Made by a program: the position numbers and the translations under genes. The notes below the pieces were generated by a model. It was not told the origin of the DNA. It searched no databases and saw nothing but the letters and a program-made list of their open reading frames with translations. Positions 3,505 to 11,758 of a stretch of DNA of 64,000 nt are shown piece after piece (position 1 is the first letter of the stretch; the number at the start of each line of letters is the position of its first letter). This DNA is from Nitrospirota bacterium (GTDB lineage: Bacteria > Nitrospirota > UBA9217): the NCBI GenBank assembly GCA_963790205.1, contig CAWBNQ010000001.1, positions 1,131,560 through 1,195,559 of the forward strand. Reading direction: 5' to 3'.

Positions 3505-3777
3505 ATGCCGGTGATAAAACCCATTTCCGACCTGCGCAACAAGGCGAACGAGATCTCGGACCTCGCCCACAAGCTGAATGAACCCATCTTTATAACCAAA
3601 AACGGCGAGGGCGACATGGTCGTTATGTCCATGGCGCGATACGCGCAGTTTCAGTTGAAGCTCGACCTTTTCAGCAAACTTGCCGTGGCCCAAAACCAGA
3701 TCGCCTCCGGCGACAAGGGGAGAACGCTCAAGCAGGTCATGACGGACCTCAGGAAAAGGCTTCATGAGCCCGCGTAA
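3505..3777 (+). CDS. Phd/YefM-family antitoxin
   Basis: IKPISDLRNKANEI..EPIFITKNGEGDMVVMS motif; AGGAGG RBS. Confidence 0.9.
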   Translation: MPVIKPISDLRNKANEISDLAHKLNEPIFITKNGEGDMVVMSMARYAQFQLKLDLFSKLAVAQNQIASGDKGRTLKQVMTDLRKRLHEPA

Positions 3778-4072
3778 GCTTGCGGTCAAGCTCCTCAGGA
3801 TCGCGGAAGACGATCTCGCCGAAATCATCACGTTTATTGCGGAGGATGACATAGTCGCCGCCGAAAAGCTTGCCGACAAAATTGAGACCCGGCTTGCACG
3901 GCTCGCGGACCATCCCGCTCTTGGCAGAATCCCGGCTGAAGAGGAGCTCGCCCGGCTTGGCTACCGCTATCTTGTCGTTGACAATTATCTTGTTTTCTAT
4001 ACCGTGAGCGCACAGACAGTCCTTATCCACCGGGTCATTCACGGCGCGAGAGACTACGTCAATCTGCTTTAG
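3764..4072 (+). CDS. RelE/ParE-family toxin
   Basis: AEDDLAEI..HPALGR..YRYLVVDNYLVFY..IHRVIHGARD; overlaps the antitoxin. Confidence 0.9.
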   Translation: MSPRKLAVKLLRIAEDDLAEIITFIAEDDIVAAEKLADKIETRLARLADHPALGRIPAEEELARLGYRYLVVDNYLVFYTVSAQTVLIHRVIHGARDYVNLL

Positions 4073-4171: not shown

Positions 4172-4256
4172 GCAATCCGAAATCGCCAATCCGCAATCGA
4201 ATAAATCCCATCGAATCTCTTGACAAAAGCAGGCCGTGTACTATAATCGACCAGAA
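4172..4256 (+). repeat. Direct repeat copy 2: heptamer micro-repeats plus sigma70 promoter (TTGACA 4220-4225, TATAAT 4242-4247)
   Basis: Near-identical to 2266-2351. Confidence 0.85.
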
Positions 4257-4276
4257 TTGCATTGGGAGGTAAGTTC

Positions 4277-4597
4277 ATGAAGATCGACATTACTCAGCTT
4301 GCCGAGGATGAACTCATTGATCTCCACCGCCGAATCACCGAACGCTTGCGTTTTCTGAGTCAAACACGGGCGCACCATAAGATGCTGGAATTCAAGGTGG
4401 GAGATCGGGTGAGCTTCAAACCGGACGACCGTCCTGCGCTTTGTGGCGTGCTGACCAAGTATAACAAAAAAACAGTCACGATCATTACCGACAACGGGGA
4501 GCACTGGAACGTCGCATCGGGGCTCCTGACGTTGGCGAAGGAAGTGAAAGCTTCGGAAAGTAAGCAGTCAAACGTCATTCAAATGCCCAAGCGGTAA
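4277..4597 (+). CDS. Small hypothetical protein with an N-terminal helix and an SH3/KOW-like beta region
   Basis: GGGAGG RBS; FKVGDRVSF..GVLTKYNKKTVTI..WNV pattern. Confidence 0.7.
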   Translation: MKIDITQLAEDELIDLHRRITERLRFLSQTRAHHKMLEFKVGDRVSFKPDDRPALCGVLTKYNKKTVTIITDNGEHWNVASGLLTLAKEVKASESKQSNVIQMPKR

Positions 4598-4706: not shown

Positions 4707-7700
4707 ATGGGAATTAAATTGCATGAACTGTTAATTAACAAGGATTCATCAAGCGTAAAAGCATATCTGCAGGAATTGCCCTCGCACGAAAAGGGGGATG
4801 CATTCGAAAAACTCCTCGCCGAGCTTTACCGGGGCAATGGCTGGCTCGTTTCGGTCCAGGGCGGTCGGGGCGACGAAGGCGCGGACATTCTTCTCTATCA
4901 TCCCAAGTCTCCTCAGACCGTTTCCTTCATCGTTCAAGCCAAGAACCACGCAAAACCTCTCACCCTGGACCAGACTCGCATCGAGCTCATTAAATTTGAA
5001 CAACAGGCGGCACCCCGCTACAAGTGTCAGCAGTTCCGTATCGTCGCGATTAACGGTTTCGTTCAAGAGGCAGACAAACTGGGACAATTCAATATTCTGC
5101 TCGACTCCTGGAGCTATGTAGAATCTCTGCATAAACGTTACGACCCGGGCATGAACGCAGAGCCCAAAATTGAGTTGTACGCTCACAACCGCGCAACATA
5201 TGAGAATATCCAGGACCTTTGGCAGGATAATGATCATGTCGCAGTAATACAGGCCACCGGCACAGGCAAGAGCTTTCTGATCGCGCAGCCTTTGGCCGAC
5301 TTCCAGGGTAAACGCAAGATCGTCCTCGCCCCGTCTCATTTCATACTCGACCAGCAGAAATCCAAGGCGCCTTGGGCCAATGAAAAAACTACATACTGGA
5401 CCTATGCGGGCCTTGCGCAAAAGAGTGAAACTGCGGTTAAAGCCCTCAAGTGCGCCCTTATCGTGCTCGATGAGTTTCATCGGTGTGGTGCCGATGTGTG
5501 GGGCAAGAGTGTTCAGATGCTGCTCGATACTCATCCTGATGCAAAGGTCCTCGGTACAACAGCAACACCCATCCGCTACCTGGATGAGAACCGGAACATG
5601 GCTGAAGAGCTTTTCGACGGTGTGGTGGCAACAGAGCTTTCCCTTGCCGAAGCTATCGTCAAGCGTATCCTGCCAGCCCCGACGTACATTAGTGCCCTTT
5701 ATACAATGGAAGAGGAGGTTCGCAATCTTCTCACTGATATAGAGGCAAGCAAAAGACCTGAAGAAGAAAAGGTGGCGCTTAGGGCTGAGATACAAGCTCT
5801 CAAAGTCGATTGGGAAAAGACCTCGGGTATACCCGAGATACTAAAAAAACATCTGCCCTCTGGCATCAATAAACTGATAGTTTTTTGCAGAGACCAGCAG
5901 CATCTCGACGAGATGGAGATTGAGGTGCAGAAGTGGTTCCAGAAGGCCGGGGTGCACCATTTTAGGGAAAAGTATCGGGTCATTAGTGCAGACCCGGCGA
6001 GTAAGAAAAACCTGCAATGTTTCAAGGATGCTGACGACAAGGATACTGTACATCTACTCTTCGCCATCGATATGCTGAACGAGGGTTTGCATATACCTGA
6101 AGTCGGCGCAGTTATCCTCCTCAGGCCCACAGTGAGCCCTATAATATTCTACCAGCAGATCGGTAGATGCATCGAGGTAGGCAAGGACCACACGCCGATT
6201 ATTTTCGATTTGGTCAATAACTTCCAGAACCTCAGGGTGACGGATTTTCTTGTAGATCTTCAAATAGCAAAAGAGGAAGAGAAGCGGAAGCGGTCAGCAT
6301 TCGATTTGGAAGATTATGCTCCTGGAATCCACATAGAAGAACTTACCCGGCCGATCGAAGCGATATTCGAGTCTATTTACGAGCGCCTTAGCCCATGGGA
6401 GACGCAATTTGCCGCGCTGCTAACATTCAAGGAAAAGCACGGACACTGCAATGTTCCTCAGTCCTATGCCGATAATCCTGCTCTCGGTACATGGGTTAAT
6501 AATCAGCGTGCATTGAAGAAAAAGAATCGTTTGCCAAATGACCGCATACACCGATTAGAGACAATCGGCTTCGTCTGGGGTCCGCTTGCTGATACTTGGG
6601 AGCAGATGTTTGTGATGCTTCTCGCATTCAAGGAAAAGCACGGACACTGCAATGTCCCTCAGTCCTATACCGATAATCCTGCTCTGGGTCCGTGGGTTAA
6701 TACGCAACGTGCATATAAGAAAAATAATCGATTGCCAGAAGACCGCTTGCAACGGTTGGAGAAAACCGGCTTTATTTGGGATCTGCTCGATGACGCTTGG
6801 GAGCAAATGTTTTCTGAGCTCCACAAATTTAAGGAAAAACATGGGCACTGCAATGTTCCTCAGACGTATGATGATAATCCTGCTCTCGGGACATGGAGCA
6901 ACAATCAGCGTACATTGAAGAAAAAGAATCGATTGCCAGAAGGTCGTGTGCATCGTTTGGAGGAAATCGGCTTCATCTGGGGTCCGCGCGATGATGTTTG
7001 GGAGCAAATGTTTGCTGCACTTCGCGCATTTAAGCAAAAACTGGGACACTGCAATGTTCCGACGGTTTATAACGATAATCCCGTTCTCGGCAGATGGGTT
7101 GATATGCAGCGCCAGATGAAGAAAAAGAATCGATTGCCAGAAGAACGTGTTCAGCTGTTGGAAAAAATCGGCTTCATTTGGGATCCGTACGATGACGCTT
7201 GGGAACAAATGTTTGCGGCACTTCGCACTTTTAAGGAAGAACATGGACACTGCAAGGTTTCTAAGTCCTATGCCGAGAATCCTGCTCTTGGTACCTGGGT
7301 GGGTACGCAGCGTGTGCGAAAGAAACGACTGCCAGAAGACCGCGTACAGCGATTGGAGGAAATCGGCTTCATCTGGAATCCGTACGATGACGCATGGGAG
7401 CAAATGTTTGTTGCGCTTCGCACGTTTAAGCAAAAACAGGGACACTGCAATGTTCCTGCGGTTTATGACGATAATCCTGTTCTCGGTAGATGGGTTAATA
7501 CTCAGCGTTCGATGAAGAAAAAAAATCAACTGTCAGAAGACTACATGCGGAGACTGGAAGACATCGGCTTCATTTGGGATCTGCTAGATGACGCCTGGGA
7601 GCAGATGTTTGCTGCACTTAGCACGTTTAAAAAAAATAATCGACACTGTAATGTTCCGGCTTTGTATACCGACAATCCTGTTCTCGGTTCATGGGTTAAT

Positions 7701-7808
7701 AGGCAACGTTCGATGAAGAAAAAGAATCGATTGCCAGAAGACCGCGTTCAGCGACTGGAGGAAATAGGATTTGCTTGGACTCTGCGAGAAATAAGTAAGA
7801 AGACGTGA
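4707..7808 (+). CDS. Mrr-like restriction endonuclease + SF2 (ResIII/DExH) helicase + 7 helicase-associated (HA) repeats
   Basis: FEKLLAELY..GDEGADI..VQAK (Mrr_cat); ATGTGKS, DEFH, GTTAT, QQIGR helicase motifs; seven WEQMF..HGHCNVP..LG.W...QR..L...GFIW units. Confidence 0.9.
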   Translation: MGIKLHELLINKDSSSVKAYLQELPSHEKGDAFEKLLAELYRGNGWLVSVQGGRGDEGADILLYHPKSPQTVSFIVQAKNHAKPLTLDQTRIELIKFEQQAAPRYKCQQFRIVAINGFVQEADKLGQFNILLDSWSYVESLHKRYDPGMNAEPKIELYAHNRATYENIQDLWQDNDHVAVIQATGTGKSFLIAQPLADFQGKRKIVLAPSHFILDQQKSKAPWANEKTTYWTYAGLAQKSETAVKALKCALIVLDEFHRCGADVWGKSVQMLLDTHPDAKVLGTTATPIRYLDENRNMAEELFDGVVATELSLAEAIVKRILPAPTYISALYTMEEEVRNLLTDIEASKRPEEEKVALRAEIQALKVDWEKTSGIPEILKKHLPSGINKLIVFCRDQQHLDEMEIEVQKWFQKAGVHHFREKYRVISADPASKKNLQCFKDADDKDTVHLLFAIDMLNEGLHIPEVGAVILLRPTVSPIIFYQQIGRCIEVGKDHTPIIFDLVNNFQNLRVTDFLVDLQIAKEEEKRKRSAFDLEDYAPGIHIEELTRPIEAIFESIYERLSPWETQFAALLTFKEKHGHCNVPQSYADNPALGTWVNNQRALKKKNRLPNDRIHRLETIGFVWGPLADTWEQMFVMLLAFKEKHGHCNVPQSYTDNPALGPWVNTQRAYKKNNRLPEDRLQRLEKTGFIWDLLDDAWEQMFSELHKFKEKHGHCNVPQTYDDNPALGTWSNNQRTLKKKNRLPEGRVHRLEEIGFIWGPRDDVWEQMFAALRAFKQKLGHCNVPTVYNDNPVLGRWVDMQRQMKKKNRLPEERVQLLEKIGFIWDPYDDAWEQMFAALRTFKEEHGHCKVSKSYAENPALGTWVGTQRVRKKRLPEDRVQRLEEIGFIWNPYDDAWEQMFVALRTFKQKQGHCNVPAVYDDNPVLGRWVNTQRSMKKKNQLSEDYMRRLEDIGFIWDLLDDAWEQMFAALSTFKKNNRHCNVPALYTDNPVLGSWVNRQRSMKKKNRLPEDRVQRLEEIGFAWTLREISKKT
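6396..7778 (+). repeat. Seven intragenic tandem repeats of 201 bp (one of 195 bp) encoding HA domains
   Basis: Conserved Trp codons at 6396, 6597, 6798, 6999, 7200, 7395 and 7596. Confidence 0.95.
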
Positions 7809-7842: not shown

Positions 7843-7869
7843 AAAAAGCCGGGCATAGTGCCCGGCTTT
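7843..7869. terminator. Bidirectional intrinsic terminator
   Basis: AAAGCCGGGCA-tag-TGCCCGGCTTT with an A5 run on the left, between convergent units. Confidence 0.8.
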
Positions 7870-8541: not shown

Positions 8542-10746
8542 ATGTCCATCGAAAAGAAATTCGACATATCGTTCATCTCATCCCTTGCCCTGCGTGAAAA
8601 ACAGATACAGCAGAATTACCGGCCCATCATCGCCGTGCATAAGTGGTTTGCGCGGAGGCCGGGGACGTTGTTTCGCGGGCTGATTCTTTCCGAGTTCGGA
8701 GACAAACCTCTCCGGGATACGTTCTATTCGTCCAACAATCTCTCCGGTCTTACGATACTCGATCCCTTCATGGGTGGCGGCACTCCTCTTCTTGAAGCGA
8801 ACCGTCTTGGCTGTGATGTGATTGGCTATGACATCAATCCCATGGCGTATTGGATTGTGCGGCAGGAGATCGAGCATCTGGACTTGCAGGCTTATCGCAA
8901 GGCGGCGGATGATCTCATCAAAGGGCTGGAGCTGGAGGTCGGGAGTTATTACAAAACGACCTGCCTTGAGTGCGGATCGAGAGCAGCCGATGTTAAGTAC
9001 TTTCTCTGGGTAAAGCAACATACCTGCACTAGCTGCGGCAAGGCGAACGATCTCTTCCCTGGTTATCTTCTTTCTGAAGACAGACGGCATACGGAGAATG
9101 TGTATGTGTGCGCAGCCTGCGGCGAGCTTCACGGCGCAAAGGACCGGGCCAAACCGGGCAAATGCAAGTCCTGCGGAGAACGGATCGTCATCGAAGGTCC
9201 GGCGAAAAGAAGCAAATATGAATGCAAGCACTGCGGCAAAGCAAACTCATATTCATTCAAGCCTGAGCATCCGCCGATTCACCGGATGTATGCCATGGAG
9301 TATCACTGTAAAAAATGCAAATCGCAGCACGAGGGAAGGTTTTTTAAGAAGCCTTCGCGGATGGATCTGGCCAAATATACGGTGGCCTCAAACCGGTTGA
9401 GCAGTATGAAGACCTTGTTTGTGCCCGATGATGTGATATTGGGGGGCGATGAGACAGCACGGCTCCATCGATGGGGGTACCAGAAATATAATGAGATGTT
9501 CAATGCGCGTCAGCTTCTCGGGCTGGAGCTGAGCTGCCGTGTAATTGCGAAAATTACAAATGAGCGCGTGCGTAATGCGGTTGCTACCAATCTTTCGGAC
9601 TTGCTTCGATATCAGAACATGCTTTGCAGGTATGATTCAATGGCGCTTAAGTCCCTCGATATCTTTTCGGTCCACGGTTTCCCCGTCGGGCTTGTGCAGT
9701 GCGAGTCGAACATTCTTGGGATCGTTAACGGCGGCGGGGTGAACATCGGGAGCGGCGGGTGGGGCAACATCATCGACAAGTATTATAAGGCCAAAGCATA
9801 TTGCGATGCGCCTTTTGAGATACGGCACGAAGGGGGACGCAAGATCCAGGTCCCTATCCCTGATGAATGGATCGGGGACCGGCGTAATGGGACTGTCCCT
9901 CTGAGCAAACGTCATGCCCGGCTTCATAGCCAAAGCTCCATGGAGGCGGACATTCAACCTGGGTCAGTAGATGCTGTCTTTACCGATCCGCCTTATTACG
10001 GGAACGTGCAGTATGCTGAGCTGATGGATTTTTGTTACGTCTGGCTCCGGAAACTTATTGACGATCCTGCATTTAAACACCACACGACACGGGACCAGCA
10101 GGAGCTTACCGGCAACGTTAACATGGAACGGGGGCTCGATCATTTCACCGAAGGACTGTCAAACGTGTTCCAGAAAATGGCCCTGGCCTTAAAGCCCGGC
10201 CACCCTTTAGCGTTCACCTATCATCACAACACTCTCGAAGCCTACTATCCGATCGCTATTGCCATGCTCGATTCAGGCCTGGTCTGTTCCGCGTCCCTGC
10301 CGTGCCCGGCCGAGATGGGGGCTTCGATCCATATCAGCGGGACGGGATCATCCATTGTCGATACGGTCTTCGTTTGCCGGAGCACAGGCTCTGTGCCTTC
10401 CCAATGGCTCGCAAAGACCGCGGGCGCCCTTGCCGGGTTGGTGAAAGACGATATCGAAAAGCTGCGGAAAGCGGGTCTGAAAGAAACACGCGGCGATGTT
10501 CGGTGCATTATCTACGGACACCTTATCCGACTTGCTGTCTGGGACCTGCGCCACGGATGGGACAAGACGAAACCAACAAAGGAAAAAACAGCGGCAATCG
10601 CAGCGCAGATACAAGAGTTCGGAGGGTTATTAGCGGTCGAAGAGTCTTTAAGCGAGGGTATGGAGCAGCCGGCCTTGGTACGAACTTCCGCTGTCAGGGA
10701 AGAAACTCAAAAGTATGGAGCGAGCGACGATGAAATTTCCTTTTGA
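8542..10746 (+). CDS. Amino (probably adenine) DNA methyltransferase with Zn-ribbon insertion (DUF1156-like)
   Basis: HKWFARR, motif I DPFMGGG, six CxxC pairs, catalytic DPPY. Confidence 0.9.
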   Translation: MSIEKKFDISFISSLALREKQIQQNYRPIIAVHKWFARRPGTLFRGLILSEFGDKPLRDTFYSSNNLSGLTILDPFMGGGTPLLEANRLGCDVIGYDINPMAYWIVRQEIEHLDLQAYRKAADDLIKGLELEVGSYYKTTCLECGSRAADVKYFLWVKQHTCTSCGKANDLFPGYLLSEDRRHTENVYVCAACGELHGAKDRAKPGKCKSCGERIVIEGPAKRSKYECKHCGKANSYSFKPEHPPIHRMYAMEYHCKKCKSQHEGRFFKKPSRMDLAKYTVASNRLSSMKTLFVPDDVILGGDETARLHRWGYQKYNEMFNARQLLGLELSCRVIAKITNERVRNAVATNLSDLLRYQNMLCRYDSMALKSLDIFSVHGFPVGLVQCESNILGIVNGGGVNIGSGGWGNIIDKYYKAKAYCDAPFEIRHEGGRKIQVPIPDEWIGDRRNGTVPLSKRHARLHSQSSMEADIQPGSVDAVFTDPPYYGNVQYAELMDFCYVWLRKLIDDPAFKHHTTRDQQELTGNVNMERGLDHFTEGLSNVFQKMALALKPGHPLAFTYHHNTLEAYYPIAIAMLDSGLVCSASLPCPAEMGASIHISGTGSSIVDTVFVCRSTGSVPSQWLAKTAGALAGLVKDDIEKLRKAGLKETRGDVRCIIYGHLIRLAVWDLRHGWDKTKPTKEKTAAIAAQIQEFGGLLAVEESLSEGMEQPALVRTSAVREETQKYGASDDEISF

Positions 10747-11758
10747 AGTTCCTTTCGAGGAAGTGCAGGCGGACCTGGACCAGTATGTAACAGCCGTGTT
10801 CTCCGGGCTGGAATCGGAATTTCTGACCATGCCCAAGGGGGCCGGGTTCATCGATTATCCGGTATTCGAGCAAGGCTATGAGGCCCTCAAGCAGGCGACA
10901 GCAGGGTTCCGCAACTTCACGCCCGAGGCTGTGAAGAGTTGTGTGCTCTCGAATCCCATATCCCTGATCGTCATTCGCACCATGCTGGGCTTTACTCCGC
11001 CGGAGTGGGCTTATGTGGCCTCGCAGCATGCGAAAATAGACGTGCCCCAGAATTTCGTCCGCACTCTGGACAGGAAAGTCCGCGTGACCCCTCTCTCGCC
11101 GCTCAAGGCCAAGGGCGCGACAGCTGAGCGGCTGGAAGCATTGGTGAACGTGGCGTGTTCATTGCTCTCGGCAGGCGTTCCATCCACGAGCCCTGACAGG
11201 CTTCATCGACTCGACAAGGCGGACACCAGGTCGGGGCTGGACAGCATCAGGGCCATGGCGGATTTGGGCGCGCCTTATGCTATGCTCCTCTATGAGCGGT
11301 TCCTCGGCAGGCCCTTTGCCGGACATCGAGATTCGGTGAGCGAACTGATCGGCGACATTCTCGAATCGGCAATCGAGAACGTATTGCACAAAGCAGGCAT
11401 TACGGCCAGGAAAACGAAGCGGGCTGAAAAAATCCAGGGCTTTGATCAGTCTCCGGATTTCATCATCCCGAGCGAGTTCAACCCGCAAATCATTATCGAA
11501 GCGAAGATCACAGAAGACGATGGAACGGCCCGCGATAAAGTTACGCGCATCCAGCATTTGGGCGAGCTGAGCATGGCAGGCCAGCCGAAGGGAAAACCGA
11601 AATATGAAGTCATCGCCTGCATAGCGGGCCGAGGGTTCGGGGTCCGCAGGGAAGACATGAAAAAGATGCTTCTCGCCACGCGAGGGAAGGTATTCACGCT
11701 GCAGAACCTGGATAAGCTTGTGGAATGTACAAGGCTGAAGGAATTCAAAACAAAGTAA
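10730..11758 (+). CDS. PD-(D/E)XK restriction endonuclease, cognate of the upstream MTase
   Basis: PDFIIP..IIIEAK..DDGTARDK; overlaps the MTase stop. Confidence 0.8.
   Translation: MKFPFEVPFEEVQADLDQYVTAVFSGLESEFLTMPKGAGFIDYPVFEQGYEALKQATAGFRNFTPEAVKSCVLSNPISLIVIRTMLGFTPPEWAYVASQHAKIDVPQNFVRTLDRKVRVTPLSPLKAKGATAERLEALVNVACSLLSAGVPSTSPDRLHRLDKADTRSGLDSIRAMADLGAPYAMLLYERFLGRPFAGHRDSVSELIGDILESAIENVLHKAGITARKTKRAEKIQGFDQSPDFIIPSEFNPQIIIEAKITEDDGTARDKVTRIQHLGELSMAGQPKGKPKYEVIACIAGRGFGVRREDMKKMLLATRGKVFTLQNLDKLVECTRLKEFKTK

Follow-up and report, generated by a model that had tools for sequence, protein, structure and literature searches.

We analysed a 64,000-nucleotide stretch of the genome of a Nitrospirota bacterium (assembly GCA_963790205.1, contig CAWBNQ010000001.1, positions 1,131,560 to 1,195,559 of the forward strand; hereafter the window), in which an open reading frame (ORF) at 4707..7808 on the plus strand encodes a protein of 1033 amino acids (P0001). 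Comparison with Pfam identified an Mrr_cat nuclease domain at aa 30-125, ResIII, DEAD and Helicase_C matches at aa 155-489 and seven HA stretches (E 1.3e-159). This bore out an earlier reading made from the nucleotide sequence alone (the sequence-only reading), according to which one chain joins an Mrr nuclease, a superfamily 2 (SF2) motor and seven HA repeats. The total HA score was 519 bits against a cut-off of 28.4 bits, and the single repeats scored 78-87 bits each. No methylase match was found in the protein with Pfam or PADLOC, aa 564-1027 being HA repeats, and no known modified-base reader domain was detected in it. The gene is the sole HA gene found in its own genome and has a GC content of 48.4%, compared to 55.1% genome-wide.

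The nuclease domain, assigned to the Mrr-family PD-(D/E)XK type by Pfam and by motif match to LlaGI, lies at 4794..5081 and is followed by an SF2 helicase-like ATPase (aa 155-505, 5169..6221) with the Walker A lysine K188, DEFH, TAT and motif V, and with a motif VI that has no second arginine. A predicted helical linker (aa 506-563, 6222..6395) appears to take the position of the Type ISP coupler. The HA repeats start at aa 564, 631, 698, 765, 832, 897 and 964, with a spacing of 67 aa for six of them and 65 aa for repeat 5, and all these features are on the plus strand. Each repeat has a variable patch of two loop and five helix residues, described below, which reads QS / T,N,N,A,L in repeat 1 (aa 564-630, 6396..6596), QS / P,N,T,A,Y in repeat 2 (aa 631-697, 6597..6797), QT / T,N,N,T,L in repeat 3 (aa 698-764, 6798..6998), TV / R,D,M,Q,M in repeat 4 (aa 765-831, 6999..7199), KS / T,G,T,V,R in repeat 5 (aa 832-896, 7200..7394, two residues shorter), AV / R,N,T,S,M in repeat 6 (aa 897-963, 7395..7595) and AL / S,N,R,S,M in repeat 7 (aa 964-1027, 7596..7787).

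To locate the variable positions, residue diversity was scored within proteins for each of 67 columns, using 690 HA repeats from 120 homologs. The seven most diverse columns were 22, 23, 32, 35, 36, 39 and 40 (0.83-0.89), followed by column 64 (0.82). Exactly these seven positions had been picked out in the window gene by the sequence-only reading, which had described a nearly invariant scaffold with much of the variation in two patches. The scaffold is conserved, but its invariance had been overstated, as 26 of 64 columns were identical in the window repeats and pairwise identity was 61-75%. The seven patch columns held 115 of the 437 pairwise differences among the window repeats (26%; p = 0.0006 compared to random draws from the 38 variable columns, with the patch columns chosen post hoc in the same gene), but columns 25, 62, 56 and 9 were equally variable here. 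Every residue string that had been listed was found in the sequence, with the correction that repeat 5 reads V-S and not V-P. The middle residue of W-xxx (column 34), which had been counted as variable, turned out to be a conserved core residue (V in 75%).

In a predicted model of two repeats, with three helices per unit, helix 2 comprised residues 28-42 (predicted local distance difference test score, pLDDT, 96). On a helical wheel the conserved positions L30, W33, V34, Q37 and column 41 were found near 0 degrees, and columns 32, 35, 36, 39 and 40 at 140-280 degrees. The variation was not spread evenly: the five variable columns share one face of helix 2 opposite the core, and the wheel suggests that this face is exposed. 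Aspartate and glutamate together accounted for 5.8% of helix-2 face residues and 8.7% of loop residues, as compared to 28.5% and 34.6% on the variable surfaces of helix 1 and helix 3. The share of N, Q, R, S, T and H was 55% on the helix-2 face and 27-30% on the other two surfaces, and lysine and arginine were not enriched on helix 2 (19% in comparison to 21-29% on the other surfaces). A face poor in acids and rich in N, Q, R, S, T and H is as expected of a surface that would meet nucleic-acid bases.

A modular recognition code had been proposed for the variable residues. The acid-poor variable face and the reshuffling of the arrays (below) agree with this proposal, but a cipher of the TALE (transcription activator-like effector) type was rejected. 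TALEs use a code of four main residue pairs; at columns 35/36 we found 218 distinct residue pairs in 1005 repeats, the top four accounting for 15.2%. In total 816 distinct four-residue combinations were detected among 985 repeats. No strong covariation was found among the patch columns, the best pair being 22/35 (z 2.8).

We then compared the proportions of nonsynonymous (pN) and synonymous (pS) differences between repeats, in tests that all include related and thus non-independent sequences. One set consisted of 16 disjoint pairs of young duplicates, drawn from 11 genes and chosen on scaffold similarity; here pS was 0.37, and pN was 0.38 on the helix-2 face and 0.48 in the loop. In the same set the other two variable surfaces had pN values of 0.27 and 0.19, significantly below pS, and elsewhere pN was 0.08. 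Ranked by pN/pS in the 11 genes with young arrays, the seven patch columns were within the top eight (1.10-1.27), although the selection of these genes for pS < 0.6 inflates the ratios; they were within the top nine whether the window gene was included or not. In comparisons over 60 genes, the helix-2 face changed faster than one of the other surfaces in 50 and than the second in 59. Between 41 pairs of orthologous repeats the same face had a pN of 0.28 at a pS of 0.65 and is thus under purifying selection. In a clade of eight proteins with 11 repeats the face differed by 0.89 between repeats and by 0.28 between orthologs, and was kept better than the other variable columns (p 0.016-0.04). Fast change after duplication with constraint later would be the pattern of specificity positions; positive selection is not established.

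A seemingly hypervariable repeat 3 in gut alleles was discarded as a candidate, the repeat being degenerate and misaligned and its differences lying elsewhere in the unit. Two genes with young arrays in one genome (L055:7956-11292 and L047:7111-10235) had a patch pN of 0.56-0.59 at a pS of 0.30-0.37; one of these genes is broken into three parts, and an insertion sequence (IS) transposase precedes the other. Within the linker columns 60-64, columns 63 and 64 reached a pN/pS of about 1.1 in young arrays and were well kept between orthologs, making these columns a possible third variable patch or spacing element.

Repeat shuffling had been put forward as the means of retargeting, and comparison of repeat number and order showed that the arrays of relatives have been duplicated, deleted and shuffled. 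HA counts per protein ranged from 0 to 13 among the homologs and reached 14 in L020, some low counts being due to contig truncation. Shared repeat blocks were found at shifted positions in P0059/P0105 and P0018/P0033, and the array was enlarged around a common block in P0069/P0075. P0027 has lost the first of 11 units, and P0002 shows a fresh duplication. Two genes in one assembly, with a core that is ~89% identical, differed at nearly all patch positions (pN 0.68). The seven repeats of the window protein cluster apart from those of P0002 (92/87, bootstrap unsettled), and since they group together despite 83% identity of the two cores, the window array was apparently rebuilt from one unit around or after the split from P0002. 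Seven of the 120 homologs have no HA repeats, and in the five of these that were scanned the same nuclease-motor is followed by a long C-terminus with no match in Pfam, which indicates that the C-terminal slot is exchangeable. Non-HA C-terminal regions on this nuclease-motor were seen in P0050, P0053, P0054, P0057, P0064, P0083, L021 and L046, and the one in P0050 looks repetitive. An 11-unit patch signature is common to P0011 and P0021-P0039, which fall into two core clusters (below the 70% core cut-off), and suggests a long-lived fixed target.

The residues E34, D56, G58, D60, Q77 and K79 of the Mrr motif were present in 65 of 66 aligned homologs, the remaining one being without its N-terminus, in agreement with the D..QAK nuclease that had been recognised from the sequence. 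By motif, E34, D56, D60, Q77 and K79 correspond to E38, D74, D78, Q92 and K94 of LlaGI. LlaGI needs these residues for cleavage, according to PMC2790908. The nuclease motif was kept in 116 of the 120 best homologs, and 106 of the 120 carry at least two HA repeats as well. The helicase had been called intact, and Walker A, DExH (DEFH), motif III (TAT), motif V and the first arginine of motif VI were indeed invariant in 66/66 homologs. The canonical SF2 form of motif VI has a second arginine, and in this respect the description failed, as the residue three after R487 was arginine in 0/120 proteins (Q in 97, E in 13, K in 4 and another residue in 6). The residues R259, R290, R296 and R473 were invariant in 66/66 homologs, and one of them may compensate for this feature of motif VI (6153-6182 of the window, aa 483-492).

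The predicted full-length structure had a pLDDT of 85.5 and a predicted template modelling (TM) score of 0.55. Foldseek ranked the DNA-bound Type ISP enzyme LlaBIII first (4XQK, E 2.6e-13), followed by RadD and SauUSI; the LlaBIII match was partial (TM 0.26, 15% identity), and the HA array occupies the position of the methylase and recognition domains of LlaBIII. Among solved structures SauUSI (7CLG) was the best match by sequence (E 6.2e-23), and a PADLOC match to mREase_IV (E 6.4e-19) was limited to aa 250-523 in the helicase part. The two-repeat model matched the HA structure 2KTA (Z 8.0, root mean square deviation 3.1, 70 aligned residues). The W-x-x-x-Q-R spacing of helix 2 resembles that of a homeodomain or helix-turn-helix recognition helix, but a homeodomain-like fold gained no support from the fold searches, with no Foldseek match at E <= 0.001 and no homeodomain in the VIA-align top 50. 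Both searches follow the order of the sequence, so that a permuted fold might escape them. The Atlas search gave no usable match outside PF03457 for the HA fold.

The genomic surroundings of the homologs were examined for defence genes at 29 of 34 nuclease-bearing loci, with 147 near ORFs compared to Pfam and PADLOC and 150 of 155 far ORFs to PADLOC. Seven loci had clear systems (Dsr1-like; GmrSD twice; CBASS and type IIG; type IIG; DarTG and Gabija; DRT3 and type IV), and two more had an AIPR/AbiU-like or Fic gene, so that a defence gene is present within 8 kb at 7-9 of the 29 loci. Matches to ABC-ATPases, kinases, DEAD-box proteins, intron reverse transcriptases and candidate PDC genes were set aside in this tally, and a DrmD match in L044 was removed, being an IS21 IstB. 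As a control, ten random 16-kb regions of the gene's own genome (143 ORFs; 10 of 11 drawn) were scanned, and none contained a defence system; three matches in them were RecQ, a Clp ATPase and a DEAD-box helicase. Because this control is small and from a single genome, and several loci have short flanks, the enrichment in defence islands that had been predicted is suggestive only. PADLOC does not list the nuclease-motor-HA protein as a system. In L014 (9237-12982) a Dsr1-like protein appears as two adjacent ORFs, a SIR2 part and the remainder.

In the window, the gene lies inside a low-GC stretch together with DUF2442, a Phd/YefM antitoxin and ParE toxin pair (3505..4072, plus strand; Pfam), and a separate restriction-modification pair (8542..11758, plus strand) formed by a methyltransferase (8542-10746) and a DpnII/BanI-like restriction endonuclease (10715-11758), which was not found beside homologs. 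This confirmed the toxin-antitoxin and restriction-modification neighbours reported earlier. The methyltransferase has 734 aa with a Cys-rich insert and weak DUF1156 similarity, and its gene overlaps that of the endonuclease. Upstream is a small plus-strand ORF of 111 aa (4262..4597), preceded by a perfect sigma-70 consensus (12/12; 4220..4247, plus strand) from which read-through into the nuclease-motor gene is possible. As this small ORF has no family match and is not found beside homologs, it is not considered part of the system. Just past the stop codon is an 11-pair terminator-like hairpin (7845..7869, called on the minus strand). No tRNA was found in the window, and no long inverted repeat bounds the island.

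None of nine neighbours in the window recurs in 235 related loci, except for one weak Phd match. The gene is therefore a one-gene unit in which the adjacent methylase is no conserved partner, and a cognate methylase or other partner gene was rejected, as none is conserved across these loci. Together with the conserved nuclease residues, this supports the proposal of a nuclease that works as a single chain. The gene was present in 1/64 genomes of its family and 1/301 genomes of its phylum that were searched. Its relatives are sporadic across Bacillota, Bacteroidota, Verrucomicrobiota, Planctomycetes and Proteobacteria. HA arrays are common: of 8000 proteins scored, 3771 reached E <= 1e-20 against the nuclease-motor part, and arrays were found in viral and eukaryotic proteins too.

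A sister family, 36% identical over 710 aa, has the same motor and HA repeats and is without exactly the nuclease domain. In many loci of gut Clostridia the sister gene precedes a sugar transferase, and 59 of 235 loci match that transferase (L124:3511-8576, L142:1797-8531; among L049-L075 and L121-L166). Upstream of the sister gene is a tyrosine recombinase flanked by perfect inverted repeats of 37 or 26 nt, and this invertible segment was seen in both orientations (10 plus, 10 minus, in copies at least 96% identical to the one in L124). Our literature search found no paper on a nuclease-less HA helicase that heads polysaccharide operons behind an invertible segment. For nuclease-less helicase-HA genes at L096-L112, L167-L174, L072, L082 and L084, single metagenomes contain numerous copies that differ in their arrays; such genes were also seen as tandem pairs and, surrounded by small unknown genes, on large contigs of viral or plasmid-like type. 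Relatives were found on large plasmids among small unknown genes as well (5 of 72,556 plasmid records), and on viral contigs. In a survey of TniQ, 11 of 401 genomes had the protein and 0/16 TniQ matches carried HA.

Based on these results, our best reading is that the HA array is a sequence-reading arm on a stand-alone defence nuclease-motor, to which we give a probability of roughly 0.45. The targeting arm would be zinc-finger-like and context-dependent, on a stand-alone restriction-type motor, and the protein, judged from its sequence, is probably a retargetable defence enzyme in which the patch residues likely read DNA. In the proposed mechanism, helix 2 (columns 32, 35, 36, 39 and 40) and the loop before it (22, 23) would be set against the bases, with the invariant R38 on the DNA backbone, and recognition would depend on context as in zinc fingers and not follow one residue pair per base. 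As with LlaGI and LlaBIII, binding of the site would activate the ATPase, the motor would travel on double-stranded DNA and cleavage by the nuclease would occur at a distance from the site. The target would be foreign DNA with a long site absent from the host, and new specificities would arise by repeat duplication, fast change of the patch and retention of useful arrays. The narrower proposal, a methylase-free restriction enzyme with its target written in the array, seven residues per unit reading a short base stretch, duplication and shuffling reprogramming the array and long host-absent sites replacing methylation, is possible and is put forward tentatively.

Several observations weigh against an array that reads sequence for defence. 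The two-repeat model matched only HA itself and no DNA-binding fold, so that groove reading rests on composition and analogy, and the repeats are only mildly basic (K+R 9-12, D+E 6-10). The excess of patch pN over pS in young duplicates was not significant (95% interval -0.10 to +0.12), and relaxed constraint on an exposed face would be compatible with pN close to pS. In the 41 pooled ortholog pairs the face was conserved no better than the other surfaces, and in a gut set with four repeats its extra conservation was not significant (p 0.08-0.24). Nuclease-bearing genes were found with as few as three repeats (L033, L042) and with as many as 11-14, which a simple long-site model does not account for: with no methylase, a short site would be toxic to the host itself, and a site of 14 units is implausibly long; sub-arrays that read separate sites, or a target other than sequence, may fit both. 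Activity of the motor is likely, though not assured, as motif VI is without its second arginine in 120/120 proteins. The defence association gave p = 0.10 for 7/29 loci in comparison to 0/10 (Fisher). In gut Clostridia, polysaccharide operons behind the invertible segment begin with the gene for the nuclease-less helicase, which has four HA repeats, and motor plus HA does not by itself imply defence.

These points lead to three other explanations. The arm of a defence nuclease-motor might sense something other than plain sequence, such as base modifications, DNA ends or a protein of the invader, along the lines of SauUSI and other type IV enzymes, with a patch that varies by tracking changing modifications or escaping inhibitors. 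Such sensing would suit the methylase-free lifestyle shared with type IV enzymes, the SauUSI and mREase_IV matches and the tolerance of both 3- and 14-unit arrays. The number of known DNA modifications is far below 816, and the diversity of the patch far exceeds it; no known modified-base reader domain was detected, and the position-specific retention of the patch along the 11-unit array fits an ordered linear target better. Two sources fit sensing, with PLD-HA fusions placed among modification-dependent nucleases that have variable sensors (PMC12191111), and Streptomyces HA proteins (TtrA, some TniQ) tied to telomeres in a 2024 preprint that leaves recognition of 'features/sequences' by HA to further study (10.1101/2024.11.13.623437). 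On balance we consider this explanation doubtful. That the motor and HA repeats form a DNA- or RNA-tracking device of mobile elements or gene control, acting in transfer, processing or transcription processivity with the nuclease as a processing add-on, we regard as unlikely. The sister family at the head of polysaccharide operons, the plasmid and viral relatives, the ~20/29 loci without a clear defence neighbour and TtrA, a conjugation-linked HA helicase according to the same preprint (10.1101/2024.11.13.623437), would all be accommodated by it. It does not sit well with a nuclease motif kept in nearly all of the closest relatives, with a gene sporadic across phyla and absent from 300 other genomes of its own phylum that were searched, or with the lack of a conserved operon, the gene here lying among toxin-antitoxin and restriction-modification genes.

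Least probable, and in our view very unlikely, is a non-specific DNA tether in which the patch is simply the most tolerant exposed face and repeat number and order drift by unequal recombination, with no targeting. Neutrality predicts the near equality of pN and pS in young duplicates, and a tether would need neither a recurring vocabulary nor covariation, neither of which was found in strength. However, the face is under purifying selection between orthologs and outruns the other two surfaces in most genes, and helix 2 is depleted in acidic residues but not enriched in lysine and arginine, unlike a plain electrostatic tether.

Binding of DNA by HA had been reported before. With seven named positions, a natural library of about 1000 distinct repeats and a built-in cleavage read-out, HA recognition becomes directly testable. 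If the array reads sequence, a restriction-type motor can work without a methylase, and the repeat is a compact 67-aa programmable DNA-binding module. If the target is written in the array, the protein is a protein-programmed, evolvable prokaryotic immune nuclease, and HA joins zinc fingers and TALEs as a third natural scaffold for modular reading of DNA, common to TniQ-HA targeting and the nuclease-less operon leaders. If the array does not read sequence, an uncharacterised stand-alone nuclease-motor family is still described.

In comparison to known systems, the repeats are the same three-helix module, in tandem copies, as the HA domain PF03457 (2KTA). Specificity reportedly varies within the HA family, as a 2013 abstract is said to suggest. 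The title of Mills 2013 reports that the HA domain of another family member binds DNA. TtrA helicases and TniQ-HA fusions differ in having roles in DNA transfer or transposon targeting, and three sources place HA in TniQ fusions where target-selecting DNA-binding domains are found (10.1101/2025.07.27.667033; 10.1101/2024.11.13.623437; PMC11406308). A literature search found no study of an Mrr-helicase-HA fusion or of HA specificity at the level of positions, most subscription papers and supplements being outside its reach. C2H2 zinc fingers and TALEs are comparable in function only, with tandem fixed-scaffold modules, a variable face at i, i+3, i+4, i+7 and i+8 and reshuffled arrays; the HA fold is unrelated, and there is no small TALE-like vocabulary of residues. 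HA arrays may resemble zinc-finger arrays in divergence between repeats with constraint between orthologs; extra ortholog conservation was seen in one clade only and was absent in the pooled pairs. SauUSI-type type IV enzymes (7CLG) share the plan of a stand-alone nuclease, SF2 motor and C-terminal recognition region without a methylase, but have a PLD nuclease and another C-terminal domain (as in L035), and their similarity to the window protein is limited to the helicase. Closest in plan are the Type ISP enzymes LlaGI and LlaBIII, which likewise combine in a single chain an N-terminal Mrr nuclease with the same motif set, an SF2 ATPase, a linker of helices and a C-terminal module. According to PMC7049714, recognition of the target and activation of the ATPase both fall to the C-terminal methyltransferase and target recognition domain of these enzymes, and cleavage results when motors converge. 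The window protein has no methyltransferase, target recognition domain, self-marking by methylation or second arginine in motif VI; its predicted build corresponds to the first half of a Type ISP enzyme, with the HA array likely replacing the methylase and recognition domains. It represents a real and widespread variant of the Type ISP plan without a methylase.

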